Of a DNA stretch of 64,000 nt, positions 22,088 to 64,000 are shown piece after piece (within the stretch, counting starts at the first letter, position 1; each line of letters opens with the position of its first letter). This DNA comes from Patescibacteria group bacterium (GTDB lineage: Bacteria > Patescibacteriota > Patescibacteriia > Veblenbacterales > UBA10138), in the NCBI GenBank assembly GCA_041645215.1, contig JBAZQK010000004.1, forward strand, positions 2,475 to 66,474, given 5' to 3'. A program made the position numbers and the translations under genes. The notes beneath the pieces were generated by a model, which was not told where the DNA came from, searched no databases, and worked only from the letters and a program-made list of their open reading frames with translations.

Positions 22088-22104
22088 GTATCACAATTTC
22101 TATT

Positions 22105-23800: not shown

Positions 23801-23848
23801 TGCCAACTTCGTTGGCGCGCCGCCTATAAATTTAAAAATTCATTCTTT

Positions 23849-26230: not shown

Positions 26231-26235
26231 ATGTT

Positions 26236-26445
26236 TTATTTCATTAAATTATCAAGCGAAACGCCGAGCGCGTCCGCAATTTTTTTGACTGTATCAATAG
26301 TAGGGTTGGGTGTCGAGCCCGCTTCAATTTTAGCGATAGTATGAAAAGCCAAATTTGCCTTTTTTGATAAGACATCTTGAGAAATACCGAGCTTATTTCG
26401 GAATTTCTTTATATTCTCGGCGATTGTGGATTTTTCGTTTGACAT
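26236..26445 (-). CDS. XRE-family helix-turn-helix transcriptional regulator
   Basis: 69 aa with canonical Cro/CI HTH (LGISQDVLSKKANLAFHTIAKIEAG). Forms an operon with the GmrSD-like gene. Confidence 0.85.
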   Translation of the reverse strand: MSNEKSTIAENIKKFRNKLGISQDVLSKKANLAFHTIAKIEAGSTPNPTIDTVKKIADALGVSLDNLMK

Positions 26446-26623
26446 ATTCGTATAGTTTTACTACGATAGTTAGTAGATAACCATGATCATAACTTATCAC
26501 TAGTTAGTATATGAAATTTTTACAATTTAGTCAAACGAAATTAGGGAGTTCCTTGATGTTGCGCGCGAATGGGCAGGGTGGGTCAAGCGCAACTGTATTG
26601 GCGGCGCATTTCGCAAAGCGAAA

Positions 26624-26780
26624 TACGAAATTCGGCGGCGGCGGAAAAGCGAGGACGGGCAAAAATTCCTTCCCCCCAACCCCCTTCCTTTTTGCCCGCC
26701 CGAGCTTAAAAGTTTTTCAAAATTCAGCGTTCGGATTTTCGCTAAAAAAAGTTCGGATTTCGTTCAGCGTTCGGAGCCAA
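26624..26780. repeat. IR-A copy 2 (inverted), ends with core GGAGCCAA
   Basis: Reverse complement of 23646..23800 with no mismatches. Confidence 0.9.
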
Positions 26781-26898
26781 ATTGTATGTTGTGAGTTTAT
26801 TGCCTCGGCGCTTCGCGCCTCGGCAGGCAGGTTGTATAGTATTTGCCAAGATTTTTTGGGTTCAATCGCCACCTTTTGCGAAAGCAAAACGCGGTTCG
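26772..26898. repeat. IR-B copy 1 (126 bp), begins with core GGAGCCAA
   Basis: Reverse complement of 28347..28472 with no mismatches. Shares the 9-bp core with IR-A copy 2. Confidence 0.9.
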
Positions 26899-26998
26899 CC
26901 GTTGCAAAGCAACGGATAAACGAAGTTTATGAGCCAATCCTTTTATTTCCGCCAAAGGCGGAAAGCAAAGCGATAATTTTTAATAGCCCAAAAACGAT

Positions 26999-28507: not shown

Positions 28508-28540
28508 CAGGCACCTGCTCTACCACTGAGCTACCCCGGA
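28466..28540 (-). tRNA. tRNA-Asn (anticodon GTT), CCA encoded
   Basis: Cloverleaf folded by hand. Acceptor TCCGGGG/CCCCGGA, D-arm GCTC-AGTGGTA-GAGC, anticodon loop CTGTTAA, T-arm GTGGG-TTCGAGT-CCCAC, discriminator G plus CCA. Confidence 0.9.
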
Positions 28541-50668: not shown

Positions 50669-50897
50669 AGATTAATAAGATTTAATTTTTATTTATCACA
50701 TTTTAATAGTACTCCTTCTGAGAAAAACAAAAAACTGCCCGATTGGCAGTTTGGTTGTATCTTATGGCGGGTGTGTCCCGATGAACGTCGGGAGACCCCC
50801 CATGCCCCGTAGCGTCCTCCAGAGGAGGACTGCTACTGGGTTTCTTCATTACCCCCGAAGAACGAACTGATATTCTTCTACGGGGCAAGTCAGTGAA

Positions 50898-51001
50898 CCC
50901 CGTTAGAAGCTCACACAGGGCATTAAACCCCGTGTTCGCTGTTGAGAATTGGGCATTCATCCCTGCGGCAGAGACCGCAGGGCATCCTGCTTCTAACGGG
51001 G
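50898..51001. mobile_element. MITE-like element B, CCCCGTTAGAA-TIR family (104 bp, inverted relative to A)
   Basis: About 85% identical to the reverse complement of 15435..15535. Paired compensatory substitutions in the internal hairpin (ccccgcgg/ccgcgggg vs ccctgcgg/ccgcaggg). Confidence 0.7.
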
Positions 51002-51016
51002 TGAAGTACATTCCAC

Positions 51017-51181
51017 TGGTGGGCGGCGATGGATTTGAACCATCGACCTTCTCATTACCGCGCCCCGTACCAAATTTGGGTTGGTGGGTGTGCCTGGATT
51101 CGAACCAGGGACCTCTTCATTATCAGTGACCCCGCACAACTTCGCCTTTGCTCAGTAAACGGGGCAAGAGTGCTTTTTCTC
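51017..51181 (-). other. two tandem tRNA-3'-half-like remnants, each ending in ACCA
   Basis: Minus strand: ...GGTC GATGG-TTCAAAT-CCATC GCCGCCC ACCA (51017-51081) and ...GGTC CCTGG-TTCGAAT-CCAGG CACACCC ACCA (51082-51181). T-arm plus acceptor 3' strand, but no matching 5' acceptor strand. Confidence 0.55.
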
Positions 51182-51490
51182 TGGTGGCTATTTACAACAC
51201 CGGTTGGACTTACTTTAGCAAAAAATCCTGACCCTGACCAGCGATTTACCCCTTCATGCACCCCTTCATTCGCTCGGTCGCGGCTTGAAGGGGCAGATTT
51301 CGCAATATCACGCTTAAACACTCGCTTCTTTCCCCTCACTCCTCGCAAAATCAAAGTCCGACTTCACTACGGAAAGGGTTGCTCCGCTCCTCGCTTCGCT
51401 CGTCGCTCCGCAAGTCGCGGGGTCGCGTCTGGTGGCTCGGCCTTCTCCTTCCGTCCCGCTATTTCTTTTTGCTCGTCGTGGGGGGGGTGA
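51182..51490. repeat. 309-bp terminal inverted repeat, left copy
   Basis: 100% identical to the reverse complement of 59241..59549. Outer end TGGTGGCTATTTAC, inner end poly-G(8). GC-rich. The embedded ORFs (51055..51354, 59377..59697) are judged spurious. Confidence 0.9.
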
Positions 51491-51572
51491 AGACGGGTAA
51501 AAAGGAAGGACGGAAGGAAGAAGGCCTCGTTAGAGGGGGTCGGAGGGCGTATAATGACAATATAACGCTTCT

Positions 51573-52436
51573 ATGTCAAAACCACGTCTTAAACAATTTG
51601 AACGAGCAGTGGTCGCCGACCCCCTCAAGCTCCAGCCCCGCGACATCGCGCTCCTCCGCAATGTGGCCGAGTTTCGTTTTCTAAACACCGAGCAGATTTT
51701 GACGCTTCACGAGGGAAGCCGCCGCAACCTGATGGAGCGATTGAGCCGCCTCTACCATCACGGCTTTCTTGACCGACCAGTCAGTCAAAGCTCCGCACGC
51801 CTTACCTCGTCGCACATGGTTTACTCCTTGGGACGCAAAGGAGCGGAGCAACTGTCAAAAGACGCGGAGGAGCGCGAAGGGATTTATCGCCGCGTCAAAG
51901 AAGTTGAGCGAACGCTCCCTCTTATGGCTCACGCCTTGATGATTTCTCAATTCCGAGTTTGCCTTACGCTGGCGGCGAAAACTCACGGGGTTAAAATTAC
52001 TCGCTGGTCGCAAGGTTACGACTTAAAAGAAACCTTGCGTCATGTCCACGGCGAAAATCCCTCGTTAGTGCCGGACGCATTTTTTACGCTGGAAGATAAA
52101 GATGATGTTATCAACTTTTTTCTTGAAGCCGACAGAGGCACGATGACGGCGGAAAGGTTTGTAAATAAATTAAAAACATATTGGTCGTGGCGAAGCGACG
52201 AGAGGTTGAAAAAGAAACTCCGTCTTGCCCGTTTCCGCGTCCTCACTATCGCCCCGTCGGAACGACGGAGCGACAGTTTACGGAACGCTGGAAAGGGCGG
52301 CGACCCGCGAGGAGAAGGAAGTTTAATGTTTTTATTCGCTTCCGAAACGCGATATAATACGGCTACACCAAAGACGATTCTCCAAACGATATGGAAATCG
52401 CCCAAGGACGAAATTCCTCACTCTATTTTAGAGTAG
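51573..52436 (+). CDS. replication-relaxation family protein (winged-helix, plasmid/ICE-type)
   Basis: N-terminal LQPRDIALLRNVAEFRFLNTEQILTLH...SRRNLMERLSRLYHHGFLDRP matches the replication-relaxation family signature. Confidence 0.7.
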   Translation: MSKPRLKQFERAVVADPLKLQPRDIALLRNVAEFRFLNTEQILTLHEGSRRNLMERLSRLYHHGFLDRPVSQSSARLTSSHMVYSLGRKGAEQLSKDAEEREGIYRRVKEVERTLPLMAHALMISQFRVCLTLAAKTHGVKITRWSQGYDLKETLRHVHGENPSLVPDAFFTLEDKDDVINFFLEADRGTMTAERFVNKLKTYWSWRSDERLKKKLRLARFRVLTIAPSERRSDSLRNAGKGGDPRGEGSLMFLFASETRYNTATPKTILQTIWKSPKDEIPHSILE

Positions 52437-52690
52437 AGTGTTATAATGGATTTAGAAAACAGAATGGTTTGGAAGCAAAAGTTATTTCCAATAATCATAT
52501 ATATTGTAATCGGATTTTTTAGTAGCGCGGGTTCAGAAAATCCTGCTTCAAAAGCATATGCGCCAACTATTCCACCGCAAACCAATCCGTTTTACGAGGA
52601 TATAACCGCATAGTTTTCTGGTAAAATTAAGTAAATAGCCGTCAGTCGAAACGGCTTTAATTAAGCAGTTGTTTAATAAAATCTTATATT

Positions 52691-53437
52691 ATGGGAACTT
52701 TAATTTTTTGGATTGTCGTTATCGCCTTCGTGGGCTATATCTACCTGCGGCGGAAAAAGAAGATTCCGCCTCTTTTCAGTTTGAACGCCAAAGCGGGAGG
52801 TCTCGGCAAAGGAACATCGGTCATTAACGAAAACAACATCGTGGAGGAGTGGTCGCAAATCATACTCGGTATGGGCGGCAAAGGCGAGGAACTCCTGAAA
52901 TCCATCACCGCCAAACTTCAGGCCCAAAACTTGCCGGATGTGGTCTTTGCCCGCAAAGAGGCGTCTTTGGGCCAGTCAAATTACACCTTGGGCGACAAGA
53001 GATACGAGTTTGTTACTATGCGTCACCAACGCTACCCCGACTACGAGATGTTTATCGGCGCGATTGACCGCGCGGGACAGCTTAAGGTGTCGTGGTATCT
53101 TACTGTCGCCTTGCCGGGGAGAATTATGGGAAAGTTGCGGGCCATAAACAAAGCGGACAGGGACGCCATGCCCCGCGCATTGAGAGCACCTCAAATGCTC
53201 TCCAAGACGCTCGGTAAAATGCTCGCCCAGCGGCTAAACGAAAAGATGGCCGGTAAGCCCGTGCCGATTCGCGTCCGGCCGGAGGATATGACGATGGACG
53301 ACAAGGAAGAACTCGGCACATACATTACCGTCGCCCACAATGTCGTCTTGGCCGCGCTGGAGGAAATGATGAACGACCTCAAACTGGATTTCTCCAAAGT
53401 GGACAAGCACACGCAGGGCTTCCTTAATCTTTCGTAG
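52691..53437 (+). CDS. hypothetical membrane-anchored protein
   Basis: N-terminal TM, 248 aa. No motif. Confidence 0.5.
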   Translation: MGTLIFWIVVIAFVGYIYLRRKKKIPPLFSLNAKAGGLGKGTSVINENNIVEEWSQIILGMGGKGEELLKSITAKLQAQNLPDVVFARKEASLGQSNYTLGDKRYEFVTMRHQRYPDYEMFIGAIDRAGQLKVSWYLTVALPGRIMGKLRAINKADRDAMPRALRAPQMLSKTLGKMLAQRLNEKMAGKPVPIRVRPEDMTMDDKEELGTYITVAHNVVLAALEEMMNDLKLDFSKVDKHTQGFLNLS

Positions 53438-53439
53438 TT

Positions 53440-54936
53440 ATGGAAAGCAATTTCCAAAAATGGCTACGGCTTGTTTTCAGCAAGCCGAAAGTTTTGCCGA
53501 TTTGGGCTAATGAAGAAAACCAAGAGCCGCTTTTACGCTCCCGCTCGCCGAACCCCGACGAGCTGGCTTTGGGTTGGGCGGCGGGCAAGGACGAAACGGA
53601 CAACCGCGAAGTCCATCAACTAAAAGGCGTGTCCCAAGAACACCGCGACACGCATTTTTACGTCATCGGGGCTTCCGGTAGCGGCAAAACTAAATTTTTG
53701 GAAACGCTCGCCAAGCAGGACATAGAAAACGGCTTGGGCTTCGGGGTGCTTGACCCGCACGGCGACCTGACGGAAGACATCAAGGGCTATCTCTACGTTT
53801 TGAAAAAGCACGCGGCCGAACAGCTTCAAGAGCGTGTTGTCCTGATTGATCCCACTGACCCGAAATATACTGTCGCCTTCAATCCGCTTGAAATAACCAA
53901 AGGAGAATCCGCCGCCTCCGTTGCCTCCGAGCTTACGGAAGCGTTCAAGAAAATATGGAAGGACGCTTGGGGCGCGAGAATGGAGGACTTATTAAAAAAC
54001 TCCCTTATCGCCCTTATTGAAAACGACCTCACGCTCGCCGAGTTGCCTTTGTTTCTTACCAACGCCGAAGTGCGTCGCAAGATTTTGGAAAAAGTTAATC
54101 ACGGCGTCAGCCGCCAGTATTTTGAGCGGTTTAATTCTTTGCGGCGAACTACGCAAGACGAGTGGATGGAATCCACTTTGAATAAAGTGAACGCCTTTTT
54201 ATTTGACGACAATATCCGGCAAATGCTCTCCTCGCCCAAAAGCTCTTTCAACCTGCGGGACGTAATGGACGAGGGGAAAATTCTCCTCGTTAAACTGGAC
54301 AAGGGCAGGTTGAAAGGCAACGCCGATCTTTTGGGGTCGCTTATGCTCGCCAAAATACAGGCGGCGGCGTTCTCCCGCACCGACACGCCGGAGCTTCAAC
54401 GGCAGAAGTTTTATTTATACATAGACGAGTTCCAAAACTTTGCGACAGAGAATTTTATCAGTATGCTCGGTGAAGCTCGCAAGTATCGGCTCGCGTTGTT
54501 GTTGGCTCATCAAAACCTCGCCCAACTGCCCGCCACCCTGCGGGCTTCCATTCTTTCCAACTGCGGGCTTCAAGCGTATTTCAGAATATCGCGCGACGAC
54601 TCCAACATTTTGGCGAAAGAATCACTCGCCTCAATTTACAACGACCCGCCCGGCTGGGAGCGATATATTCAAGCACTTCAAGAATTGCCGCGTCGCGGGT
54701 GCGTCATAAAAAACAAAATTGACGGCGGGGTGATTGCCGTGCGGACGCTCGACCTTCTTCCTCCGCACGAATTGGCGGAAACGGACGAGGAGCAATTCGT
54801 CAAAGAAGTTGCCGCCTGCGAGATAGGCAAAAACTATCTTTGCGAAAGGAAGAAGATCGAGGAAGAATACAAGGCACGGCGGGACAAGCTCACCAGAGCC
54901 GACGAATCGGAGAGTTTCAGAGAGCCGAGGCGTTAA
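53440..54936 (+). CDS. VirD4/TraG/TraD-like coupling-protein ATPase (AAA_10-like), soluble form
   Basis: Walker A GASGSGKTKF, DPHGD, Walker B YLYIDEFQNF, ARKYRL. Paralog of 57893..59182. Confidence 0.65.
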   Translation: MESNFQKWLRLVFSKPKVLPIWANEENQEPLLRSRSPNPDELALGWAAGKDETDNREVHQLKGVSQEHRDTHFYVIGASGSGKTKFLETLAKQDIENGLGFGVLDPHGDLTEDIKGYLYVLKKHAAEQLQERVVLIDPTDPKYTVAFNPLEITKGESAASVASELTEAFKKIWKDAWGARMEDLLKNSLIALIENDLTLAELPLFLTNAEVRRKILEKVNHGVSRQYFERFNSLRRTTQDEWMESTLNKVNAFLFDDNIRQMLSSPKSSFNLRDVMDEGKILLVKLDKGRLKGNADLLGSLMLAKIQAAAFSRTDTPELQRQKFYLYIDEFQNFATENFISMLGEARKYRLALLLAHQNLAQLPATLRASILSNCGLQAYFRISRDDSNILAKESLASIYNDPPGWERYIQALQELPRRGCVIKNKIDGGVIAVRTLDLLPPHELAETDEEQFVKEVAACEIGKNYLCERKKIEEEYKARRDKLTRADESESFREPRR

Positions 54937-55028
54937 TTGGACTGTTTCAATAATACGGATATAATGAGGGTATTATAAATTCTTTAAGGTCGAGACCATA
55001 AAAACTTTAATTATAAACAAATAATCTT

Positions 55029-55736
55029 ATGAAAAAAATAACCTTTTTAACTTTAGCTCTTGCGGTTGTTATCACAACCGGCAACCTTGTTGCCGTAGCT
55101 GAAATAAACCCACTGGCGGGAAAAATCATCGCGCTTGACGCCGGACACGGCGATACGGACGGTGCGGTAAATGAGAGAGTGCTGAAATCTGACGGCACGC
55201 CCGTAACAGAGGCGGAGGTAAACTGGGATGTAGTCCAAGCGTTAAAAACAAAGTTGGAAATTTCTAACGGCGCGTATGTGGTGGTCACCGAGCGTTTCTC
55301 AACGCGGCGGGATAGAGTGAACGACGCAGTAACGAAATGCGCCGAGCTTGATGTGGATGGCGTTGTTGGGGCAGACAACAGAAAGTGCGATGTCTTGGTA
55401 TCAGTTCACCACAACGGGAGCACCGACCCGACACATGACGGCACGCTCACTATTTACACCCAGAACTCGGACAAGCCGTTGGCTAAAGCCCTTTACGATT
55501 CATTGCTCCCTCTTACCAATAAACCGGAAGGAATGTTGAACGGCGGCTATGGGATGACAGTATATAAAAATCTTGTTTCTACCATCACCGAAGCGTATTA
55601 CATTACTAACGACGACGAAGCGCGTTTATGGCTTTCCGGCACAAGAACACCGGAGGAAGTAGACGCACAAATTGTCGGACTGACCAATTACTTCGCTTCT
55701 CAATCTTCCGGCGGCAAGGGAGGAAAACCAAGATAA
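55029..55736 (+). CDS. N-acetylmuramoyl-L-alanine amidase (Amidase_3 family), secreted
   Basis: Signal peptide. LDAGHGDTDGA zinc-site motif. VSVHHNGS and E-containing blocks typical of Amidase_3. Confidence 0.75.
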   Translation: MKKITFLTLALAVVITTGNLVAVAEINPLAGKIIALDAGHGDTDGAVNERVLKSDGTPVTEAEVNWDVVQALKTKLEISNGAYVVVTERFSTRRDRVNDAVTKCAELDVDGVVGADNRKCDVLVSVHHNGSTDPTHDGTLTIYTQNSDKPLAKALYDSLLPLTNKPEGMLNGGYGMTVYKNLVSTITEAYYITNDDEARLWLSGTRTPEEVDAQIVGLTNYFASQSSGGKGGKPR

Positions 55737-56202
55737 CCGCCCGCCCGCCGAAAACCTCTCCCTTGAAAAAACTCGCTTGACGAAAATCTCACCCGAAACC
55801 GCTTAATCGCTATTACAGAATGTCTGCGACATACTGTAATTTTCTGGCTTGATTTTCTGCTCTTTTTTCTCGGTCGCTTTCCTCAAAAACCTTTTCTCTC
55901 CGAGTAAAGTTTTTTCAGGAATTTTCGGCGTTATGGCGTCCGAATCCTTACCGCCTTTTGAAAGCACCCCGCAATACGATTGTGGCGTGTTTTCAAAACT
56001 CATTCGCCAAAGGCGAAAGAGCAAGGACGGACGGCTTCGTCCGCCATTTCAAAAAAGCCCCGCCCTACGCGGGGCTTTTCACATTTTCCTTATTGCCATC
56101 AGTGTCTCTTAATTTTAGCGTCAGCTTATCGCCCGTAAAGGTAGTACAAAGTCTCCACCTTGACTGGCGCAAGCTATCAGCCGCTTTCTCCTGCTTCGGT
56201 CG

Positions 56203-56556
56203 ATGGCAGATAAGGCGGCGATGCCAAACAACATAAATAGCCGCCAGTTAAATAAAAACATGATTAAACAAATCATATCTAACTGGACGGGTTCAGAGAA
56301 AACGTCCGACCTCGTTCGCGGTCAAATCGCGGAACGCTGGGGAGCCGAAGAGGCCAAGCGTTACGATCCGAGGACGAATTGCCTCACTTTCAAAGCGTGG
56401 GGCGATAATGGCTATGTCGTCCGCAAGGGCGAGAAAGCCATTAAATCCTTCATCATCGTTGAGAAGAAGGATGAAAAGACGGGAGAAGTCGTTGAAAAAC
56501 GACTCAAGAATATCTTCCTCTTTTACGAGAAGCAGGTCGAGAAGCTTCCCGCGTAA
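56203..56556 (+). CDS. ArdC-N-terminal-like (DUF1738) ssDNA-binding protein
   Basis: TFKAWGDNGYVVRKGEKAIK resembles the ArdC N-domain block TFKQA..GG.VRKGEKG. 117 aa. Confidence 0.4.
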   Translation: MADKAAMPNNINSRQLNKNMIKQIISNWTGSEKTSDLVRGQIAERWGAEEAKRYDPRTNCLTFKAWGDNGYVVRKGEKAIKSFIIVEKKDEKTGEVVEKRLKNIFLFYEKQVEKLPA

Positions 56557-56710
56557 CAGAAAGGGAGCCGGCTCCGGAAACGGGGTTGGCTCCCTTTTTT
56601 GCGTTTACACTGAACTGGTTTTTTAAGATAGTATTTTATGAGTAATCGTTAAATCGGAAAGTTTCAGAGAACCGAAAACATTGACAGAATAAACAAGCCA
56701 TTGTTTAATT

Positions 56711-57538
56711 TTGTCAATGGAGTCCACCGAAAAAAGATTTTTACGGACATTAGGAATAGCGATGGGAATTCTCTTTTTAGGTGGTCTAATCATTTTCATA
56801 GACACTCTAACACCGCCGCTTCCAACTCCTCAAACCGTTATTAAGGAAGCTCCGCAAGAAATTCCAAAAAGCGACAATGCGGACTACTCAACCATAGTTG
56901 CCGAGTGGCAAAACAGAGTGGTTCGAGTTACCTGCTATTGGAGTAGCTCTAACGAACAACCGCTAACATTAGTGGGAGGGTCTGCCCTCTTGACCACCAT
57001 TGCCGACTATGGCTTTGTGGCCGTGACAAACAAACACGTCATAACCGATTCTTATGGTAGGACGGCAGACAGTTGCGGTTTACTCTTAGTGGGGTTCGGG
57101 GATATTAGTTCTATGGAGACTAATCCGCTTAAATTTCTTTACGGCGATCCCTTTTTGGTTGATTCGAATAGTAGAGATGTGGCGTATATAAAACTTGGTC
57201 GCGCGAATATTTTGCGTGACAAAAACGGATTGTTCGCTGCAGCCGCCAAAGCGGCGTTAAATCTATGCTCTGTATCGAGAGTTCGTATTGGTGATGAATT
57301 AATTGTTTTGGGTTATCCAACTATCGGAAGTCAAAATGGAATCACCGTTACAAAGGGGATTATTGCGGGAATTGAGAATGACTATTACGTGACGGATGCG
57401 AAAATTGATCATGGTAACTCCGGTGGTGCGGCCATTCTTATTAAAGATGATTGCTATATTGGGATACCGACATGGGCGAGTACCGGTAGCGTTGAATCGC
57501 TTGGAAGAATATTAAAAACCGATTTTTATTACCCATAA
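56711..57538 (+). CDS. trypsin-like serine peptidase, membrane-anchored
   Basis: N-terminal TM. His in VAVTNKHVITDS, Asp in DVAYIKL, Ser in GNSGGAAIL. Confidence 0.65.
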   Translation: MSMESTEKRFLRTLGIAMGILFLGGLIIFIDTLTPPLPTPQTVIKEAPQEIPKSDNADYSTIVAEWQNRVVRVTCYWSSSNEQPLTLVGGSALLTTIADYGFVAVTNKHVITDSYGRTADSCGLLLVGFGDISSMETNPLKFLYGDPFLVDSNSRDVAYIKLGRANILRDKNGLFAAAAKAALNLCSVSRVRIGDELIVLGYPTIGSQNGITVTKGIIAGIENDYYVTDAKIDHGNSGGAAILIKDDCYIGIPTWASTGSVESLGRILKTDFYYP

Positions 57539-57568
57539 AACAATACAATTTTGCGCTTCTTTATTTTT

Positions 57569-57641
57569 GCCCTCGTAGCTCAATGGACAGAGCAAGACGC
57601 TTCTATCGTCAAGGTTGGGGGTTCGATTCCCTCCGAGGGCG
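57569..57641 (+). tRNA. tRNA-Arg (anticodon TCT)
   Basis: Acceptor GCCCTCG/CGAGGGC, D-arm GCTC-AATGGACA-GAGC, anticodon loop CTTCTAT, T-arm GGGGG-TTCGATT-CCCTC. No encoded CCA. Confidence 0.85.
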
Positions 57642-57892
57642 CAAATCTTGACTTTCGTATCTCTAATGTTGTATAACTCTTTTAAGTTTCATTACCCTCG
57701 CTTCTCCTGCACAAAGGATGTCGCGGGCGGGACGGCTTGGGGAAATACAAAAGCCGGTCCCGACCTTCAAACAATCTTTCCCCGATTGATTGAGGACGGA
57801 ATGGACACGATTTAATAAGTTAGGGCACACGGCAAAAGGGCGAGCAATCGCCCTTTTGTCTTTATGAAAGCTACGGAAAACAACTTTATTCT

Positions 57893-59182
57893 TTGGACGA
57901 ACATCATTTGGACGAAATAGAATCGCTCGGCGAAACTACTTTTAGAGAACAGCGTCGTGCGTTCGGAATAAGACCCAAAGACCGACGCCATCATGTTTAT
58001 ATCATCGGCAAGACCGGCACGGGCAAATCCACTCTTATCAAAAACATGGTCATTCAAGACCTGCGTCTGAATCACGGCGTCGCTCTTATTGATCCTCACG
58101 GCGACTTGGTGGAGGACATATTAAACTTCATACCGAAAACGCGGACAAACGAAGTTGTCTATTTCAATCCTGCGGACACCGAGCACCCTGTCGCTATCAA
58201 CATACTTGAAGCGAAGGGCGACGAGGAAAAACAACTCGTCGCCTCATCGCTTATTTCCGTTTTCCGTCATTTGTGGAAAGAGTTTTGGGGTCCCCGTCTT
58301 GAACACATTTTATACAACTGCGTCTTGGCTTTGATGGACACGCCCGGGCAAACTTTGCTCGGCGTGTATCGCATGCTCGTGGATGACGAGTTCAGAAAAC
58401 TCATCGTCGGCAACATCAAAGACCCGATTGTAAAAATGTTTTGGGTCGAGGATTATGAAAGTTACGACACCCGTTTTCGCAAGGAAATAATCTCGCCCGT
58501 TCAAAACAAAGTGGGACAACTTCTCACATCTCCGCAAATGCGAAACATCGTCGGCCAAGCCAAAAGCTCGGTGGACTTCGGTTTTGTGATGGACCAAAAG
58601 CGGATTCTTTTGGCCAATCTTTCCAAGGGGAAAGTTGGCGAAGATAAATCAAACCTGCTCGGTTCGGCCATCGTTACTAAAATGTATCTCTCCGCTTTGG
58701 AGCGGCAGAACTTGCCGGAGGAGCACCGCAAGGACTTCTATCTCTACATAGACGAATTTCAGAATTTTTCCACCGACATTTTCCCGTCTATCCTCTCCGA
58801 AGCTCGTAAATACCGCTTGAACCTCAACCTCGCCCATCAATACCTCTACCAACTGCCCGAAGGCATCAAGCACGCCGTTTTCGGAAACGTCGGGACTGTC
58901 ATTTCCTTCCGCGTCGGGAGCTACGACGCCAAAGAACTGGCGGAAGAAATGAAGCCCGTATTTACGAGCGAGGACTTGGAGAACTTGGACAATCATCATA
59001 TCGCCTTGCGGCTCTTGATAGACGGAAAAATGTCTCACGCTTTCTCCGCCGTTACCTTTCCGCCCCTGAAACCCACCGGACGGGAAGCGGAACGGGACAC
59101 GGTTTTACGAATATCGCGGGAACGCTACGCTACTCCGCGCGATATTGTAGAAGAAAAATTAAAAAATTGGTTTGAAAAATAA
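57893..59182 (+). CDS. VirD4/TraG/TraD-like coupling-protein ATPase (AAA_10-like), second paralog
   Basis: Walker A GKTGTGKSTL, DPHGD, Walker B YLYIDEFQNF, ARKYRL. Confidence 0.65.
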   Translation: MDEHHLDEIESLGETTFREQRRAFGIRPKDRRHHVYIIGKTGTGKSTLIKNMVIQDLRLNHGVALIDPHGDLVEDILNFIPKTRTNEVVYFNPADTEHPVAINILEAKGDEEKQLVASSLISVFRHLWKEFWGPRLEHILYNCVLALMDTPGQTLLGVYRMLVDDEFRKLIVGNIKDPIVKMFWVEDYESYDTRFRKEIISPVQNKVGQLLTSPQMRNIVGQAKSSVDFGFVMDQKRILLANLSKGKVGEDKSNLLGSAIVTKMYLSALERQNLPEEHRKDFYLYIDEFQNFSTDIFPSILSEARKYRLNLNLAHQYLYQLPEGIKHAVFGNVGTVISFRVGSYDAKELAEEMKPVFTSEDLENLDNHHIALRLLIDGKMSHAFSAVTFPPLKPTGREAERDTVLRISRERYATPRDIVEEKLKNWFEK

Positions 59183-59240
59183 AACGCTCTCGGCCACGCG
59201 GCCTTGAGCGTTTGTTATTTTATTTTTCAATCACGATTTA

Positions 59241-59549
59241 TCACCCCCCCCACGACGAGCAAAAAGAAATAGCGGGACGGAAGGAGAAGGCCGAGCCACC
59301 AGACGCGACCCCGCGACTTGCGGAGCGACGAGCGAAGCGAGGAGCGGAGCAACCCTTTCCGTAGTGAAGTCGGACTTTGATTTTGCGAGGAGTGAGGGGA
59401 AAGAAGCGAGTGTTTAAGCGTGATATTGCGAAATCTGCCCCTTCAAGCCGCGACCGAGCGAATGAAGGGGTGCATGAAGGGGTAAATCGCTGGTCAGGGT
59501 CAGGATTTTTTGCTAAAGTAAGTCCAACCGGTGTTGTAAATAGCCACCA
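59241..59549. repeat. 309-bp terminal inverted repeat, right copy
   Basis: Exact reverse complement of 51182..51490. Confidence 0.9.
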
Positions 59550-59699
59550 AGATACAACTCAATTCATTTTCAGAAATTTTTTGATGGGCTTCCTCAATGG
59601 AAGCCCATTGTTTTTCCGCAACGCCGCGCGCTTCGCGCGCGTGAAGTGTCAGGTTCAATCCGAAGATTTTTTGAGCGAACGATTTTTTGAGGGGTAAGG

Positions 59700-61448
59700 T
59701 TAAATATTATCGTGAATTTTTATAAGCAGTTGTACTAAATCCTTAATCTTGAATTTTTTGAGCTCGCTCTTGTCAGCAAGATACTCAAAAACATAGTGCG
59801 CTTTTGTATTCGCCTCCTTCCTGAATAAACCCACTTCTCTATTAAACTTATCTATATAGTTTTCAATGTTAGGTTTGCCGAAATTTTTTCTCTCGCCGTA
59901 AAGATTCTTTATAAGAACACCGAATTTGTGTCTCACCTTATTTTTTGTGTCGTACCACAAATCAACACGCCTAGGGAATTTCTTTTCCAGAATATTAAAC
60001 ACCAAATTTTCTATCATCTTCCTGCAAAGAAAAAACGCCGCGTTGGGGTGATTATGTTCATAACAAACATTAATTTCCTCTTGAAGTTGGTCATAAAAAT
60101 TCTCCGGGTACTTACCGCCAATCTCAACCAAGACCTCTGGCGGCGTTGGAACTTTTGTGGGCGTTGGAACTGGCAATGGGCCCTTGCGTTCTTTTGCAGT
60201 TTTCTTTTTCCTTGCTTTGATTTTATGCGATTCAAGCTCACTTCGCAGGTCGGTGAATATCCCGAATATGGAAGCCTGAACGAACGCAATCAAGTCTTGA
60301 AACTCCTCCGTAAATACAACGCCCTCCCTCGTAGTTGTATCAATAATTGCGGAATTTTTTGACCTGCTTATGTGAACCATTCCGATCAGTTGATCGCGTC
60401 TGGGATATATGCTGTTGTTATGTGCAGAGATATCCAGGTTAAGCCAGTCATTTCCAATATCCCCATAAGGTTTTACCCGAAAATTATCCCGATAGAGTTT
60501 GATTCCATTGTAGTGCTCCAGCAACTTTACAATCTCCTTGAGCTCGGCGGTTACCATCTTTTTCCCGACTGCCTGCTCAAAAGATTTCGGCGACTTGTAG
60601 AAGAAGTGCAGTTCAAAAACAGCATCTCCGCATTTAAGTTTTCTGTCCGTTGGCCGGTTGCCGTCTCTCTTTTTTCCTTTTGCCGAAGAAAATTCGTAAC
60701 GGATCAGGCTTCCGCCTACCAATTTGGTTTTCAAAGTATAAACAGCTTTATCAAGAAATTCTTTCTTGATTTTGGGGACTACGGCTAGCGGCGGGTCAAA
60801 TTTTGCGGCTACCTTAAAATCTCTTGCTTGTTTATTCAACGGGTTGAGCAGATATACATCTGACAATAGCTCTGTCTGTGTTTCTTGAATGTTCCAGTCG
60901 TGGTTTAGATTCTTGATTTCAATCCTTATGCCGTGTTCAGATTTTTTCTTCTTGAATTCGGATGTTGGATTATCAATATCGTTTACAAGAACTTTTTCGT
61001 CCTGATATTTATCCCAATCAAAGACAATTTTATATCCCGTATCCTTTCCTTTGGGCAAAGAAAACAAAGTCGCTGTTCTGCCCAAGCTTTCTACAGACAA
61101 TCTTCCAATACCTTTCTCGCCGATAAAAGTTCTCTCCCCGTTTTTTAGTTTCTTTGATTTAAATGGGGTGGCTATCCGCATCCATTTACTTTTAAGGTCC
61201 AGATAATCCATCCCGTTGCCATTATCTGATATAGAAATCATTGCGTCCTTCGTATTAACGGAGCTAAAATCAACCTCTACTTTAGCCGCACCAGCATCAT
61301 AGGAATTTTTAAGGAGTTCTAGTATAGCGACGTCCTTATTGGAAATGGACTCACGCCCGAATTTTCTTATCAGGTTGCCGCTAACGTCAAAGCGGAGCGG
61401 TTCAACGCTTTTCTCCTGAAAATTTTTGTGATCTTTCGGATTGTGCAT
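59700..61448 (-). CDS. GHKL-superfamily ATPase (MORC/MutL-like, HATPase_c_3-type)
   Basis: N-box ILELLKNSYDAGA, G1 box ISDNGNGMD, G2 GEKGIGRLS. 582 aa. Last gene of a three-gene minus-strand operon. Confidence 0.75.
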   Translation of the reverse strand: MHNPKDHKNFQEKSVEPLRFDVSGNLIRKFGRESISNKDVAILELLKNSYDAGAAKVEVDFSSVNTKDAMISISDNGNGMDYLDLKSKWMRIATPFKSKKLKNGERTFIGEKGIGRLSVESLGRTATLFSLPKGKDTGYKIVFDWDKYQDEKVLVNDIDNPTSEFKKKKSEHGIRIEIKNLNHDWNIQETQTELLSDVYLLNPLNKQARDFKVAAKFDPPLAVVPKIKKEFLDKAVYTLKTKLVGGSLIRYEFSSAKGKKRDGNRPTDRKLKCGDAVFELHFFYKSPKSFEQAVGKKMVTAELKEIVKLLEHYNGIKLYRDNFRVKPYGDIGNDWLNLDISAHNNSIYPRRDQLIGMVHISRSKNSAIIDTTTREGVVFTEEFQDLIAFVQASIFGIFTDLRSELESHKIKARKKKTAKERKGPLPVPTPTKVPTPPEVLVEIGGKYPENFYDQLQEEINVCYEHNHPNAAFFLCRKMIENLVFNILEKKFPRRVDLWYDTKNKVRHKFGVLIKNLYGERKNFGKPNIENYIDKFNREVGLFRKEANTKAHYVFEYLADKSELKKFKIKDLVQLLIKIHDNI

Positions 61449-61457
61449 GTTTTTGTC

Positions 61458-62714
61458 TTAAATACTACGCAGAATAGTGGAAGCGATTATTTCAGCAAAT
61501 ATCGGAGGTACAGCATTGCCGATTTGTTTGAACTGTGGTCCGCGCTCGCCCTCAAACTTATAATCATCAGGGAATGTTTGCAGGCGCGCCGCCTCTCTTA
61601 CGGTCAGAGAACGGTTTTGTTTTATGTCAGGATGAATATAAAAATGTCCATCTTTCGCGATGTGCGCAACGATGGTGTGTAAACCTTTAGCAACAGCATC
61701 AACCACCTTGAACCGGTCCAGAAAACCATCCTCGTTGCTATGTGTTTTCAGGCGTTCTGGCAGGTGATTATACTTTATGTTTTCACCTTTCCGTTTTGCA
61801 AGCACCGCACGTCTGTAAATTTCCAAGTCTTGGCTGTTATTCGGCCTGGCCACGTGATCCATAAGGATTCCAAACTTCGGATTGAGGATACCGAGTTTCT
61901 CCAAAAGCATGTTCCGTTTTGAAAATTTCCAGACCCGTTTGCCTGTTCCTGCTTGGACTTCCGGCAGACCGGCAAAAAAATCTTTAACGACATACTCGCG
62001 TTCAGTTGCCGGAAAATCCGGATAACCATTGATTTTTGATGTTTTATTCCAACCAACAAGAATGACCCGTTTTCTGTTCTGTGGAACGCCGAAATCCACG
62101 GCATTAAGAATTTTATAATCTGTATCATAACCAGCGTGCTTCATAAGACGGCGCATATCCCGAAGATATTTACCTTTTCCTGCTGTTTCAAGCCCAGGGA
62201 CATTTTCAAAAACAAACACCTTGGGTTTTAGAGCTTTCAGGAATTCTACATAATATCGGTAAAGAAAATTACGCTCATCCCGGCGCATATTTTTGCCGTC
62301 GCGGGCACGCCCTATGTACGAATAAGCCTGACAAGGCGGGCCGCCGACGATAATGTCTATCCTTTTCCCGTTCAAACGTTTCTTGATTTGCTGAATAAGT
62401 TCCGTTATGTTGTTTTTTTCTATTTTCGCGCATATCACAGAATCCTTTTCTTTTTGAAGTCCGTATTTTTCTATCAGCGAATCACGGGTGATTCTGCCGA
62501 ACACATAGTTTCTGTAATCGTCCAGCTTGTCTTTTTTAAGAAGTGCGTGATATACCATTCGCGTTATCAGAGTGCTGCAGGCTTTTTTGTCCATTTCTAC
62601 ATGGGCAACCATCTCACATCCGGCCTGCATAAAACCCTCCGATAGTCCGCCAGCTCCGGAGAAAAGGTCAATCGCGGTAAAAGTTTTATTTTTTCGTTGT
62701 TTTGGCTTTTTCAT
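61458..62714 (-). CDS. DNA (cytosine-5)-methyltransferase
   Basis: Motif I AIDLFSGAGGLSEGF, motif IV GGPPCQAYS, motif VI ENV. The target recognition domain and motifs IX-X are plausible but not examined in detail. Confidence 0.9.
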   Translation of the reverse strand: MKKPKQRKNKTFTAIDLFSGAGGLSEGFMQAGCEMVAHVEMDKKACSTLITRMVYHALLKKDKLDDYRNYVFGRITRDSLIEKYGLQKEKDSVICAKIEKNNITELIQQIKKRLNGKRIDIIVGGPPCQAYSYIGRARDGKNMRRDERNFLYRYYVEFLKALKPKVFVFENVPGLETAGKGKYLRDMRRLMKHAGYDTDYKILNAVDFGVPQNRKRVILVGWNKTSKINGYPDFPATEREYVVKDFFAGLPEVQAGTGKRVWKFSKRNMLLEKLGILNPKFGILMDHVARPNNSQDLEIYRRAVLAKRKGENIKYNHLPERLKTHSNEDGFLDRFKVVDAVAKGLHTIVAHIAKDGHFYIHPDIKQNRSLTVREAARLQTFPDDYKFEGERGPQFKQIGNAVPPIFAEIIASTILRSI

Positions 62715-62717
62715 ATA

Positions 62718-64000
62718 TCAATGAGAAAATATTCTCTCAAAATCATTTGTCCAATACTGCCTATATTCTTCCTTAATTTCTTTGCCCGGCTGTCGTTCGT
62801 TAAAGTAAAACATCTCGGCTTTTTCAAGTTTTTTATTCCTCATTTTATTAAAATCATTAAGAAAATCAAGGAAACCATCAATTTTTTCAGCAGAATTTTC
62901 AGTGTGTTCAATTCCGTGGGGGTCAATAAATTTCAAGTAATATTTATTGTCTTTCTTGAACCAAAAAATAAAATCTGGGAAAAACATTCTGTATTCACTT
63001 TTTTCTGAATCAAAATAAGGAATACCGATTTTATCAATAGTTTCGTCAATTTTTGAAAAATACCACCACTTACATTGTTTTAATTTATTATCTGCTTTAT
63101 TTAAATATTCTTTCAGTTTTTCTAAAAATTCAATTTCGCTCCCAACTTTAATAATGTGCTGGAAACGATCCGAATCCTTTTTAAATAAAATCGGGGAATA
63201 GTAATGTTCCTCTAAAATTTCAAAATCTAAGTAATTTTTCAATACTTCAAGATTCTTGCTATCGGCGATATCTTTAATCAGTTTTTTATATTCATCTCTT
63301 CCGATTTTTCCGTCATCAAACATCTTGTCAATTTCTTTCTCTGTTTTTCTCGGTTTGATAATTTTCAAAATATCTTTTTCCAGTTTCGCCACCTCGGTTT
63401 TATCTATGTTTGTTTTTACCTCTTTATAGTGAGAAATTTCGCCATCCAAAATTTTTATTGCGTTCAGTTTTTTTATGTTTTCATTAAAATAATTGTCCGC
63501 GATAAACAATATATTTTCTATTGATTTTTTCCTTCGCCTTTCGCCAATCTTAAAATTATTTTTGGCGTTTACCATTTTATATGTTCTTAATTTAGCCCAA
63601 TTTTTCAAAAGAAGTACTTTCGCGCCATTTCTTTGAACAATCTGTGAAAGTTCGTCAAATTCATTTTTGCCAATCCAAAAAGGCTTATCGTTTAATCCGC
63701 CATCCTCAAAGACCGGAATAAAAATCGGCAAATCACTTTCTTTGATTTCCTCGTTTTTCTTTATTCCCTCAATTTTAATCCATTCGGCGTTAGCTTGTTT
63801 CTCAAGCCCTTCTAAAATATTTTTCACAACTTCTTTATTCGTGGCGAAAACAAACAAGCTCTCCAAAAGATTATTGCTTTTTTCTATCTTTTCAATTTCG
63901 GAGTTTGAAAAAAGCGAATTGTCCAAATGCTCAAACCTTTTTCTTTGATTTGATGTCGGCTCAATTCTTATTCCTCGTCCGATTGACTGCAAAACAAATT
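62718..64000 (-). CDS. C-terminal part of an SF2-helicase-containing protein with putative nuclease-like C-domain (gene continues beyond window end)
   Basis: Begins in-window with helicase motif VI QSIGRGIRI. About 400 aa follow, ending FPDFIFWFKKDNKYYLKFIDPHG (possible PD-(D/E)xK-like). The upstream helicase motifs lie outside the window. Confidence 0.55.
   Translation of the reverse strand, partial: FVLQSIGRGIRIEPTSNQRKRFEHLDNSLFSNSEIEKIEKSNNLLESLFVFATNKEVVKNILEGLEKQANAEWIKIEGIKKNEEIKESDLPIFIPVFEDGGLNDKPFWIGKNEFDELSQIVQRNGAKVLLLKNWAKLRTYKMVNAKNNFKIGERRRKKSIENILFIADNYFNENIKKLNAIKILDGEISHYKEVKTNIDKTEVAKLEKDILKIIKPRKTEKEIDKMFDDGKIGRDEYKKLIKDIADSKNLEVLKNYLDFEILEEHYYSPILFKKDSDRFQHIIKVGSEIEFLEKLKEYLNKADNKLKQCKWWYFSKIDETIDKIGIPYFDSEKSEYRMFFPDFIFWFKKDNKYYLKFIDPHGIEHTENSAEKIDGFLDFLNDFNKMRNKKLEKAEMFYFNERQPGKEIKEEYRQYWTNDFERIFSH

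Follow-up and report, generated by a model that had tools for sequence, protein, structure and literature searches.

An 8.4-kb stretch between perfect inverted repeats in a Patescibacteria genome reads as the probable left segment of a tRNA-associated, serine-recombinase island with an inverted internal attP

Two exact reverse complements of 309 nt lie 7750 nt apart in the window, by which we mean the whole 64,000-nt stretch of Patescibacteria DNA analysed here, and raise the question of whether they are the ends of a self-contained mobile unit or belong to something larger. An earlier note on this DNA had described the repeats as perfect, and they are indeed 100% complementary (51182-51490 against 59241-59549), with ungapped extension at neither end and TGGTGGCTATTTAC at their outer tips. 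Its gene list was likewise borne out by Pfam profile search, with the ATPase motifs visible in the translations, as were the tRNA-Arg(TCT) and the lack of any integrase or transposase domain in the DNA enclosed by the repeats (Table 1). We consider it likely that this 8.4-kb stretch is the left segment of a ~19-kb island inserted by a large serine recombinase (LSR) at the 3′ end of a tRNA gene and carrying an inverted internal copy of its attP.

Table 1. Coordinates of the features of the island and its left flank, in window numbering.
Feature	Position	Strand	Remarks
Left flank (B side)	51017..51129	-	two tRNA-3′-half-like remnants, 51017-51059 and 51082-51129
Core O, TGGTGG	51182..51187	+	inferred attL; outer tip of left arm
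Left repeat arm	51182..51490	+	likely P′ arm of attP plus conserved intergenic region
Repeat motif CCCCTTCAT	51249-51257, 51261-51269	+	two direct copies
Repeat motif TGAAGGGG	51286-51293	+	one inverted copy of CCCCTTCAT
Conserved 18-bp hairpin	51439-51456 with 51508-51526	+	
Replic_Relax protein	51573..52436	+	Pfam E 9.5e-29; winged helix and PD-(D/E)XK nuclease
248-aa protein	52691..53437	+	N-terminal hydrophobic/membrane helix; directly upstream of ATPase 1
ATPase 1	53440..54936	+	P-loop, VirD4/TraD/HerA superfamily
Amidase_3	55029..55736	+	Pfam; signal-like N-terminus; variable cargo of module
ArdcN-like (ArdC-N-like)	56203..56556	+	Pfam; variable cargo of module
Trypsin_2 protease	56711..57538	+	Pfam; variable cargo of module
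tRNA-Arg(TCT)	57569..57642	+	island-borne; CCA not encoded
ATPase 2	57893..59182	+	paralogue of ATPase 1; best conserved protein of module
Terminator-like hairpin	59176-59221		at 3′ end of ATPase 2 gene
Right repeat arm	59241..59549	-	likely P′ half plus intergenic region of intact, inverted, internal attP
P half of internal attP (likely)	59550..59697	-	LSR C-terminal fragment, in frame into right arm
Second segment, start	59700..64000	-	runs on to ~68.5 kb, outside window
HATPase_c_3 protein	59700-61448	-	second segment
C5 cytosine methylase	61458-62714	-	second segment
424-aa protein	62718-63992	-	second segment
Further genes	beyond window		ResIII/SNF2 helicase, N6_N4 methylase, HTH protein, then LSR
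LSR gene, intact	~68550-70145, outside window	+	Resolvase, Recombinase, Zn_ribbon_recom; ~9 kb right of repeats

The repeats are biologically real, because an independent MEGAHIT assembly (ERZ27249422) holds a single contig corresponding to window 51350-59381 with the same 141-mer inverted at both ends, and because the same gene module lies between near-perfect homologous repeats, 220-318 nt long, at ~35 other Patescibacteria loci, contigs of 420-868 kb among them. These results refute the earlier caveat that the repeats might be an assembly artefact, and others speak against the view that they are the ends of an element: sequence shared between elements continues for ~150 nt past the right arm, and no target-site duplication was found at the repeat pair. 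Left flanks are unrelated between loci, whereas conservation is seen past the right arm, with the 59550-59697 stretch recurring there in nine other elements.

The composition of the arms points to a recombinase as their source. The outer 50 nt of each arm (51182-51231 in the left one) are the last 16 LSR codons and stop, and ~51243-51490 belongs to the conserved intergenic region that precedes the Replic_Relax gene; homology of the left arm with other elements starts at about repeat position 62. Across the right boundary, minus strand 59697-59500 reads as an LSR C-terminus whose stop lies within the arm (translation ...LPLKKSFAQKIFGLNLTLHAREARGVAEKQWASIEEAHQKISENELS/CILVAIYNTGWTYFSKKS, then stop). 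Contig L002, which equals window 59557-70145 with zero mismatches in the overlap, carries the LSR gene, the end of which matches the 141 nt of 59557-59697 in inverted orientation at 100% identity. A second inverted-repeat pair is thus formed by 59557-59697 at least and a partner at ~70005-70145 in the LSR gene 3′ end.

At the junction of these pieces stands TGGTGG, the reverse complement of CCACCA and, judging by the sequence, the putative crossover point of the serine recombinase. The inferred attL reads ...GCTTTTTCTC/TGGTGG/CTATTTAC, the internal copy ...GAGTTGTATCT/TGGTGG/CTATTTAC, and the relative L043, whose LSR is 86% identical and whose almost identical P arm is joined at TGGTGG to a tRNA-Tyr, ...GAGTTGTATCT/TGGTGG/tRNA-Tyr. 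The left-flank contig L004 ends exactly at 51187. Both tRNA remnants in the left flank comprise a T-arm and acceptor strand ending CCACCA, as read off the sequence, and are called by neither ARAGORN nor Rfam; the one at 51082-51129 starts TGGTGGGTG, as does the end of the tRNA-Tyr in L043. Earlier events at this tRNA-type target probably left these relics behind, and the target of the ~19-kb island is probably tRNA-Tyr.

The left arm would accordingly be the attL junction of the island and the right arm half of an internal inverted attP, an assignment in which we have reasonable confidence, as we have in the overall layout: attL (B-O-P′), relaxase/ATPase module, inverted intact attP, restriction/defence cargo, LSR, and attR at the tRNA. 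By analogy and with L043 as a guide, the island would extend roughly from window 51182 to ~70.15 kb. Its attR and target tRNA lie beyond the window and contig L002. An empty site for the ~19-kb island was not found, and no circular form was seen among 80 metagenome loci.

The same layout recurs in a second, smaller island of the window (23636-28473, tRNA-Asn), and there the three-site logic was verified in full. Its attL reads ...ACATAGAAAC/TTGGCTCCG/AACGCTG, its internal inverted site ...ACATACAAT/TTGGCTCCG/AACGCTG and its attR ...ACATACAAT/TTGGCTCCG/tRNA-Asn, and the empty site B-O-B′ occurs in a related strain, in which window 23654 is joined to 28456. The repeats of this sister island are arranged in the same way, and it has no Replic_Relax gene. 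The three-site logic also holds in L035 (tRNA-Asn), L039 (tRNA-Gly) and L089, and its LSR-end half in L103 and L044 (tRNA-Gly). In L032, L123 and L124 the Replic_Relax gene is directly followed by the LSR and no repeats were detected, so the inverted attP copy is not obligatory.

We propose that the LSR integrates the island at the 3′ end of the tRNA gene and excises it again. With attP inside the 3′ end of the LSR gene, 16 codons upstream of the stop, integration would leave two pieces, the P′ arm on the left and the LSR gene on the right. The left end would then consist of the P′ arm, the downstream intergenic region and the Replic_Relax module, with attL as B/TGGTGG/P′, and the right end of the LSR gene, oriented outward so that it reads into the tRNA, with attR as P/TGGTGG/B′. 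One complete inverted attP between the Replic_Relax module and the restriction/defence cargo would create two adjacent inverted-repeat pairs, P′ plus intergenic region (309 nt) and P arm (at least 141 nt). The identity of the arms may be maintained by mutual recombination or gene conversion, which would also flip the segments.

The earlier note's mobile-element reading is upheld by the relaxase-type nuclease, the VirD4/TraD-like ATPases and the real repeats, but not as a self-contained 8.4-kb unit. Replic_Relax is a MOBC relaxase class of PD-(D/E)XK fold (PMC5357655, PMC3424549), and the protein encoded here is a putative relaxase of MOBC or nicking-initiator type; its PHROG annotation points equally well to replication initiation. 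The short repeats upstream of its gene (51249-51293) covary across 16 elements (CTTCA, TAGTCA, CTACA and CATCA, each with its matching partner), six of eight pairs changing on both sides and 93% of cells being paired, and are a candidate binding site or hairpin for this protein (oriT or origin). The loop of the 18-bp hairpin carries a nearly invariant motif, TTTTTGCTCGT..GGGGGG (51466-51487), and contains the inner repeat boundary at 51490; 3′ of the hairpin, a −10-like TATAAT (51550-51555) lies ~17 nt upstream of the Replic_Relax ATG.

Both ATPases, 36% identical over 358 aa, match Pfam TrwB_AAD_bind, T4SS-DNA_transf, DUF87 and TraG-D_C. For ATPase 1 the first two score E 4.5e-12 and 3.3e-9, the NCBIfam VirD4-like CD1115 family E 2e-17 (below cutoff), PADLOC mad8 E 6.6e-18 and phrog_5156 E 1e-43. 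The best matches are divided at similar scores between VirD4/TraD-type coupling proteins and HerA/mad8-type (defence) ATPases, and because these scores are similar a transfer role is putative rather than established. ATPase 2 is 81-96% identical in most relatives and 65-68% in the most distant loci. The 248-aa protein has no Pfam or other family match, and a counterpart of 24-61% identity occupies the same position in relatives. In relatives, Peptidase_S49 or SDH_protease stands in place of the trypsin-like protease and the amidase is often missing; L038 has a tRNA-Arg(tct) at the same place. No VirB4 or pore genes were found in the element. Patescibacteria genomes are reported to hold MOBC relaxases, often beside coupling-protein genes, together with a chromosomal monoderm-type T4SS (PMC12102498). 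The nuclease may act as a relaxase of MOBC type, or else initiate replication, by nicking at the covarying repeat or hairpin, and the two ATPases with the membrane protein may feed DNA to a transfer pore, in which case the island would be an integrative mobilisable element. It is best taken as integrative and probably mobilisable.

A possible but doubtful alternative is a programmed inversion switch, in which the repeats exist for flipping the two segments, as in a shufflon or the 2-micron plasmid, whether through the LSR or through homologous recombination. A flip of the right segment would alternate the native and tRNA-encoded LSR 3′ ends, or alter cargo expression; this would add a function to the island explanation, not replace it. 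Both segments do occur in either orientation among the ~35 loci: a complete LSR reads into the right arm in L046, LSR, arm and Replic_Relax follow one another in L096 and L035, and the module is flipped relative to the LSR in L030, L017, L058 and L088. In ERZ27249422 the GmrSD segment of the sister island is reversed relative to the window; apart from this reversal the DNA matches at 100%. The two arms of one element share 99-100% identity and those of different elements only ~80%, as expected from frequent arm exchange, and the excised circle would be two unique regions parted by inverted repeats. However, large serine integrases of the phiC31 and Bxb1 type are not known to recombine attP with attP, attL or attR unless partner sites or accessory factors are present. 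Moreover, inversion alters only the last ~16 LSR codons and no other coding sequence, no single sample showed the 8.4-kb segment in both orientations, and the L126 arrangement is no simple flip because its outer flank differs too.

That the 309-nt repeats are the ends of an autonomous element, with the Replic_Relax nuclease cleaving or nicking both arms in a cut-and-paste or copy-out cycle and a minimal unit of repeats plus Replic_Relax, appears improbable. Small versions with little but Replic_Relax between the arms (L039, 3.4 kb; L026, 2.7 kb; L037, at least 2.2 kb and cut by the contig end) and putative nuclease-binding repeats in both arms fit this idea, as does the fact that many assemblies give the segment a contig of its own whose ends fall within the arms, although any repeat longer than the assembly k-mer is expected to give such contigs. 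Against it, the right arm is not terminal, being followed by the LSR-derived conserved sequence, the arm tip is the LSR crossover, target duplication is lacking, and the sister island has repeats of this layout without the gene.

An integrated or mis-joined linear plasmid or phage is more improbable still. Protein-primed linear replicons typically have long perfect terminal repeats, and the segment is richer in G+C (0.48, arms 0.55) than the left flank (0.43), but no terminal protein, family B polymerase, telomere resolvase or structural genes were found. The earlier linear-plasmid or TIR-transposon reading finds no support here, there being no transposase, terminal protein or protein-primed polymerase and the repeat tips consisting of the 3′ end of the LSR gene that lies ~9 kb to the right. 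There were no relatives among 2.9 million viral contigs and, by tblastn with the Replic_Relax protein, only three weak partial matches (23-37% identity) among 72,556 plasmids; in other assemblies the contig breaks fall within the arms rather than at their tips, and the relatives sit inside chromosomal contigs of 90-868 kb. An artefact in the form of a chimeric or fold-back join has a negligible probability. Perfect repeats are a well-known red flag in a metagenome-assembled genome, but the independent assembly implies the same structure, and dozens of unrelated samples and assemblers, long contigs included, contain it. The artefact reading is refuted for the repeats themselves; what stays uncertain, should the source assembly be short-read, is the orientation of the 7.75-kb segment between the perfect 309-nt repeats.

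The island of our preferred reading most resembles serine-integrase IMEs, of which the streptococcal ones catalogued by Coluzzi et al. 2017 include a Rel_PF13814/MobC class (PMC5357655). Alike are the site-specific integration at a gene 3′ end (here a tRNA gene), the integrase at one element end, the Replic_Relax/MOBC-type relaxase with an adjacent coupling-type ATPase, the lack of mating-pore genes, and the adaptive cargo of restriction-modification and defence. The island differs in its host phylum, Patescibacteria, in its two paralogous soluble ATPases with a separate membrane protein, in an attP inside the integrase reading frame, and in the intact inverted internal attP that yields two long perfect inverted-repeat pairs. 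This conserved copy appears to be undescribed, no description of one having been found in the searchable literature. The MOBC relaxases TraX (pAD1) and MobC (CloDF13) have a PD-(D/E)XK restriction-endonuclease-like fold (PMC12857230), and in fold and context the island is similar, with the gene beside an inverted-repeat-rich candidate oriT and a TraG/VirD4-like ATPase.

With tRNA-targeting LSRs (phiC31/Bxb1/TP901-1 class; XisF of the Anabaena fdxN element) the recombinase shares its Resolvase, Recombinase and Zn-ribbon architecture, and the sites share a short core, attL and attR as hybrids of P and B arms, and a precise empty site. The cores here are 5-9 nt of identity spanning the tRNA CCA end, and the attP arms duplicated inside the element, at 127-309 nt, are far longer than functional half-sites. 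Two unique segments, inverted repeats with recombinase sites and orientation isomers are also found in the yeast 2-micron plasmid and in engineered inverted-attP cassettes (MiMIC-type). The cassettes are artificial, and the plasmid relies on a recombinase of another family, the tyrosine enzyme FLP; action of the LSR on the two attP copies of the island is purely hypothetical.

The arms at 51182-51490 and 59241-59549 are exact reverse complements lying 7750 nt apart, as the earlier note had claimed of these perfect 309-nt inverted repeats, with no ungapped extension beyond either end and with TGGTGGCTATTTAC at their outer tips. The genes named in that note, most of them assigned by Pfam, were recovered between the arms along with the tRNA-Arg, all module genes lying on the plus strand (51573-59182), and its statement that no integrase or transposase is encoded inside the repeats held for every ORF between the arms in searches against Pfam and NCBIfam. 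The arms had a G+C content of 0.55 and the segment one of 0.48, compared with 0.43 on the left side and 0.38 on the right. The possibility that the repeats are an assembly artefact was not borne out: the independent MEGAHIT assembly ERZ27249422 (ENA; k141) holds a contig identical to 51350-59381, which covers the unique segment and the inner 141 nt of each arm, and the repeats recur across the family. The tRNA-Arg(TCT) of the island lacks an encoded CCA, and the chromosomal tRNA-Asn and the integrase target tRNAs encode one; in the related locus L038, a tRNA-Arg(tct) occupies the equivalent module position and another lies just beyond the right arm.

Features of the module and of the sister island, and inverted repeats flanking the module in related loci (L handles; att sites divided by slashes at the core, O)
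Feature	Coordinates	Strand	Detail
Replic_Relax	51573-52436	+	Pfam E 9.5e-29; protein MFA4818670.1
248-aa protein	52691-53437	+	single N-terminal hydrophobic helix; no family match
ATPase 1	53440-54936	+	Pfam
Amidase_3	55029-55736	+	Pfam
ArdC-N-like	56203-56556	+	Pfam
Trypsin_2	56711-57538	+	Pfam
tRNA-Arg(tct)	57569-57642	+	
ATPase 2	57893-59182	+	Pfam
Sister island, repeats bracketing GmrSD gene	23636-23801 / 26625-26789		
Sister island, repeats bracketing LSR gene	26772-26898 / 28347-28473		
Sister island LSR	26999-28507		Resolvase, Recombinase, zinc ribbon all found
tRNA-Asn	28466-28540	opposite to sister LSR	sister LSR runs into it
Sister attL (B-O-P')			ACATAGAAAC/TTGGCTCCG/AACGCTG
Sister internal inverted site (intact P-O-P', attP)	26625-26898		ACATACAAT/TTGGCTCCG/AACGCTG
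Sister attR (P-O-B')			ACATACAAT/TTGGCTCCG/GGGGTGGGACTCGAACC (tRNA-Asn)
L007, L011 repeats			292-296 nt, 99%
L022 repeats			285 nt, 100%
L024 repeats			300 nt, 99%
L035 repeats			289 nt
L039 repeats			315 nt, on 868-kb contig
L089 repeats			318 nt
L096 repeats			307 nt
L110 repeats			294 nt, 100%, on 460-kb contig

These arms do not delimit a self-contained 8.4-kb element with terminal inverted repeats (TIRs), as had been proposed, since homology between loci continues for ~150 nt beyond the right arm; left flanks differ completely between loci, and contigs in other assemblies break within the arms, not at their tips. Read on the minus strand, 59550-59697 codes for the C-terminal portion of a large serine recombinase (LSR), in frame into the right arm (...ISENELS/CILVAIYNTGWTYFSKKS) and ending in a stop codon at repeat position 48-50. 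The overlapping contig L002 corresponds to 59557-70145 with zero mismatches in its overlap with the window, and its far end, the 3' part of an intact LSR gene (~68550-70145; Resolvase, Recombinase and Zn_ribbon_recom domains all found), is 100% identical, in inverted orientation, to 59557-59697. A second inverted-repeat pair thus brackets the next 10.3 kb, which encode a HATPase_c_3 protein, a C5 methylase, a ResIII/SNF2 helicase, an N6_N4 methylase, an HTH protein and the LSR. This LSR lies outside both the window and the repeat coordinates, and is tied to the repeats through the second pair and its in-frame 3' end. A MEGAHIT contig break near the right arm was considered as a sign of an empty site and ruled out, as the second repeat pair causes it. 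The best-supported reading of the 8.4-kb repeat-bounded unit is that it forms one of two segments of an island.

The two element classes raised in the earlier note fit the locus poorly. Against a TIR transposon, there is no transposase between the arms (Replic_Relax is a PD-(D/E)XK nuclease and not a known transposase), no target-site duplication at the arm tips (flanks ...TTTTTCTC/ and /AGATACAA), and LSR-derived sequence past the right arm. A linear plasmid or phage is contradicted by the absence of a terminal protein with protein-primed polymerase and of a telomere resolvase from Pfam, NCBIfam and PHROGs searches. Searching for free or circular forms, we found a terminal direct repeat in none of 46 metagenome loci of at least 4 kb (80 retrieved) and no relative of the element in the viral contig collection searched. 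The plasmid collection gave only three weak matches, all to Replic_Relax.

Attachment and empty sites are all proven only for a sister island in the same window, a 4.8-kb insertion (23636-28473) at tRNA-Asn that carries a GmrSD restriction gene and matches the large island in architecture. Its empty site, B-O-B', is found in the related strain L125 (ERZ27247322), where 23654 is joined to 28456 and the tRNA-Asn is intact. The same three-site pattern was seen in L035 (core TGCTC, tRNA-Asn), L089 (CTGCT) and L039 (TGGAG, tRNA-Gly); L103 shows the internal copy and attR, its attL flank being cut by the contig start, and in L044 the repeat pair at the LSR end runs into tRNA-Gly. Cores span the last tRNA bases, CCA included. 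At two of these loci (L035 7914-9704, L089 9328-9672), another LSR gene, either older or of a different kind, abuts the left arm; it is 30% identical to the active-looking LSR, and its last 31 codons fall inside the arm. This suggests successive integrations at one tRNA, with newer islands placed between the old integrase and the tRNA.

In the large island, attL reads ...GCTTTTTCTC/TGGTGG/CTATTTAC, with an inferred core at 51182-51187, and the internal copy reads ...GAGTTGTATCT/TGGTGG/CTATTTAC. The best database relative of the LSR (86% identical, on L043) is accompanied by a nearly identical P arm that runs into tRNA-Tyr (...GAGTTGTATCT/TGGTGG/GTGGGATAGGATTCGAACC). Together these three junctions point to the outer tip of the repeat as the integrase crossover point. 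On this reading, the left arm represents P' at an attL, the right arm supplies the P' half of an inverted attP copy inside the island, and the island would probably extend from 51182 to slightly beyond 70.15 kb, beside a predicted tRNA-Tyr. Exact-protein look-ups with the left-flank genes for an empty site of the large island returned only contigs stopping at the junction. Suggestively, the left-flank MEGAHIT contig L004 stops exactly at B+O (51187), a stop that could reflect a branch to an empty site, or to a different allele, in that population.

The left flank itself holds, on the minus strand, two different pieces resembling tRNA 3' halves (51017-51059 and 51082-51129; T-arm, acceptor strand, CCACCA), each preceded by TAATGA and neither a complete tRNA, which may be relics of earlier integrations at a hotspot. 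Next to them, 50735-51020 (minus strand) is a G+C-rich, strongly structured sequence of ~285 nt (MFE -144 kcal/mol, z -7.8 relative to shuffles) that ends in an intrinsic terminator and belongs to no Rfam family; its variant in L004 is limited to one hairpin loop (50970-50972). A tmRNA or permuted tmRNA was rejected for these pieces and the ~285-nt sequence, as ARAGORN reported none and a matching 5' acceptor strand is absent, and Rfam at gathering and permissive thresholds gave nothing but tRNAs in the arms and left flank. Elsewhere in the window, three direct-repeat pairs of 90-170 nt and 81-97% identity (3039-3209/4720-4889, 12504-12626/14404-14551 and 47475-47630/49027-49182) enclose one or two genes on the minus strand; strain L125 lacks the 12.6-14.4 kb segment, which encodes a Zip transporter and a 350-aa protein, and one copy of the last pair sits in tsaE.

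The module recurs widely. Replic_Relax has 650 database relatives, and among the best 120 of these, which are 59-95% identical, every specific taxon name is a Patescibacteria or Parcubacteria lineage, the others reading only 'bacterium'. We compared more than 100 fetched loci. Where both sides of the module were on one contig, near-perfect inverted repeats of ~220-318 nt almost always flanked it, and arms were 99-100% identical within one element compared to only ~80% between elements. Repeat-bounded elements ranged from 2.2-3.4 kb, with little besides Replic_Relax, up to 8.7 kb; many, though not all, carried the two ATPases, the membrane protein and the ArdC-N-like gene, and relatives of the module sit in chromosomal contigs. 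In relatives from the Rifle aquifer (L007-L016), a gene for a 509-541-aa HINT/intein-like protein (~4235-5860 in L007) stops a few bases short of the left arm, and nothing equivalent exists in the window. The reading best supported overall is an integrative, probably mobilisable island type that is widespread in Patescibacteria.

The part of the arm between repeat position ~62 and the inner end is intergenic and conserved among elements. It contains a 9-mer in two direct copies and one inverted copy (CCCCTTCAT ... ATGAAGGGG), variants of which shift together across elements (CTTCA, TAGTCA, CTACA, CATCA); six of eight pairs changed on both sides, 93% of cells were paired, and none of 500 shuffles gave a covariation score as high as that observed. 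An 18-bp hairpin (51439-51456 with 51508-51526) straddles the inner repeat boundary and presents a nearly invariant T-rich/G-rich motif in its loop, and a TATAAT (51550-51555) lies ~17 nt 5' of the Replic_Relax start codon. Judged by its sequence, the covarying region is what a specific binding and nicking site, an oriT or nick-type origin adjoining its nuclease gene, would look like. Its location within the arm means that the module has this candidate site on either side, in inverted orientation.

The adjoining Replic_Relax gene matches PF13814 at 101.3 bits (cutoff 25.3), and its product shows the PD-(D/E)XK fold with D168, E185 and D187 invariant; an AlphaFold model built with 34 homologues had a mean pLDDT of 76.6, exceeding 85 at residues 121-287. 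Replic_Relax has been placed in the PD-(D/E)XK superfamily (PMC3424549) and corresponds to the MOBC relaxase class (PMC5357655, PMC12857230), and its nearest phage family is labelled 'replication initiation by nicking' in PHROGs. The two ATPases, 36% identical to each other, match TrwB_AAD_bind, T4SS-DNA_transf and TraG-D_C in Pfam, with TrwB_AAD_bind scores of 46 and 41 bits, above the Pfam cutoffs. NCBIfam coupling-protein models, including the VirD4-like CD1115 family and TraD, all scored far below their curated cutoffs, the defence-associated mad8 (PADLOC) and HerA matched about as well as the coupling-protein profiles, and the strongest match was the uncharacterised phage family phrog_5156. 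Both a coupling protein and a HerA-like ATPase, the outcome that the earlier note named as refuting, fit these scores. Both ATPases lack a membrane helix, and a separate membrane protein gene lies 5' of ATPase 1. Comparison with sequences of solved structures gave no match for ATPase 1 and noise only for the Replic_Relax profile.

For the attributes of an integrative mobilisable element (IME), namely a relaxase and oriT without a mating pore and a site-specific recombinase, we found the Replic_Relax/MOBC match, the covarying candidate oriT, no VirB4-class match above threshold in the island (Pfam, NCBIfam), and the LSR on L002, contiguous with the window. In the mechanism we propose, the LSR would insert the island at a tRNA 3' end, Replic_Relax would act as relaxase or nicking initiator on the covarying site beside its gene, and the ATPases and membrane protein may, by family resemblance, couple DNA to a pore supplied in trans. 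Chromosomal monoderm-type T4SS are common in Patescibacteria, as are orphan VirD4-like genes, which number in the thousands, some with MOBC relaxases nearby (PMC12102498).

An invertible-segment system of the shufflon or Hin/Gin type is a possible, if less likely, reading: both orientations of the segments were seen in related elements and, when assemblies are compared, in the sister island. The module may be followed by an LSR reading outward into the tRNA (window, L035, L039, L044, L089, L103) or by a complete LSR that reads back into the right arm and keeps its native C-terminus (L046); in other loci the order is LSR, arm and then Replic_Relax (L096, left side of L035), or the module is flipped relative to the LSR side (L030, L017, L058, L088). 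The contig L126 (ERZ27249422 k141_1063730) is 100% identical to 12105-23801 and carries the GmrSD segment reversed. Comparing its 11532-17141 with 23636-26789, we found that a core with a single mismatch (TTGGCTGCG) links the far arm to unrelated sequence encoding a 166-aa protein, a 161-aa protein and an NYN-domain protein. This far junction looks like a second attL-type junction, possibly produced by recombination of the internal attP with a secondary site. The reversed segments and the second junction of L126 mark the arms as places where DNA rearranges, whichever enzyme is responsible. On the favoured reading both arms are copies of a single attP arm, which explains their identity, and recombination between them most likely maintains it.

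Two origins or roles for the inverted copy were weighed and rejected. Nested or tandem double integration should give the order P' ... rc(P) ... rc(P') ... P; in the observed copy, rc(P') directly adjoins rc(P). A single-strand panhandle, in which incoming ssDNA folds into a double-stranded attP, fails because recombination of the stem with attB would split the chromosome into hairpin-capped arms.

Patescibacteria (CPR) account for a large share of bacterial diversity, and to our knowledge almost nothing is known of gene exchange among them. A 2025 survey reported few relaxases in Patescibacteria and judged their T4SS mostly not to serve conjugation (PMC12102498). Our analysis defines a widespread, recognisable island type in this group, composed of a tRNA-targeting serine integrase, a MOBC-type nuclease with a co-evolving DNA site, two coupling-type ATPases and restriction/defence cargo, with attachment sites readable to the base. 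Its repeats systematically break short-read CPR assemblies, leaving the orientation of 3-10 kb segments undetermined, and its integrases, with ready-made attP/attB pairs, are candidate genome-engineering tools.

The inverted spare attP, identical to the active arms, is a conserved oddity that current models of serine-integrase elements do not predict, and we found no description of this architecture in the searchable literature. It is possible, if doubtful, that the copy is a functional, selected feature of this large Patescibacteria serine-integrase island family and not a neutral duplication. If so, the excised circle would gain two working attachment sites of opposite orientation that set its two cargo segments apart, and the Replic_Relax nick site or origin would be duplicated, inverted, on both sides of the transfer module. 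Possible consequences would include alternative integration isomers, flipping that restores the native 3' end of the integrase, and secondary rearrangement or cassette exchange at tRNA-like sites, the last mirroring in nature the cassette exchange that has been engineered with inverted attP sites.
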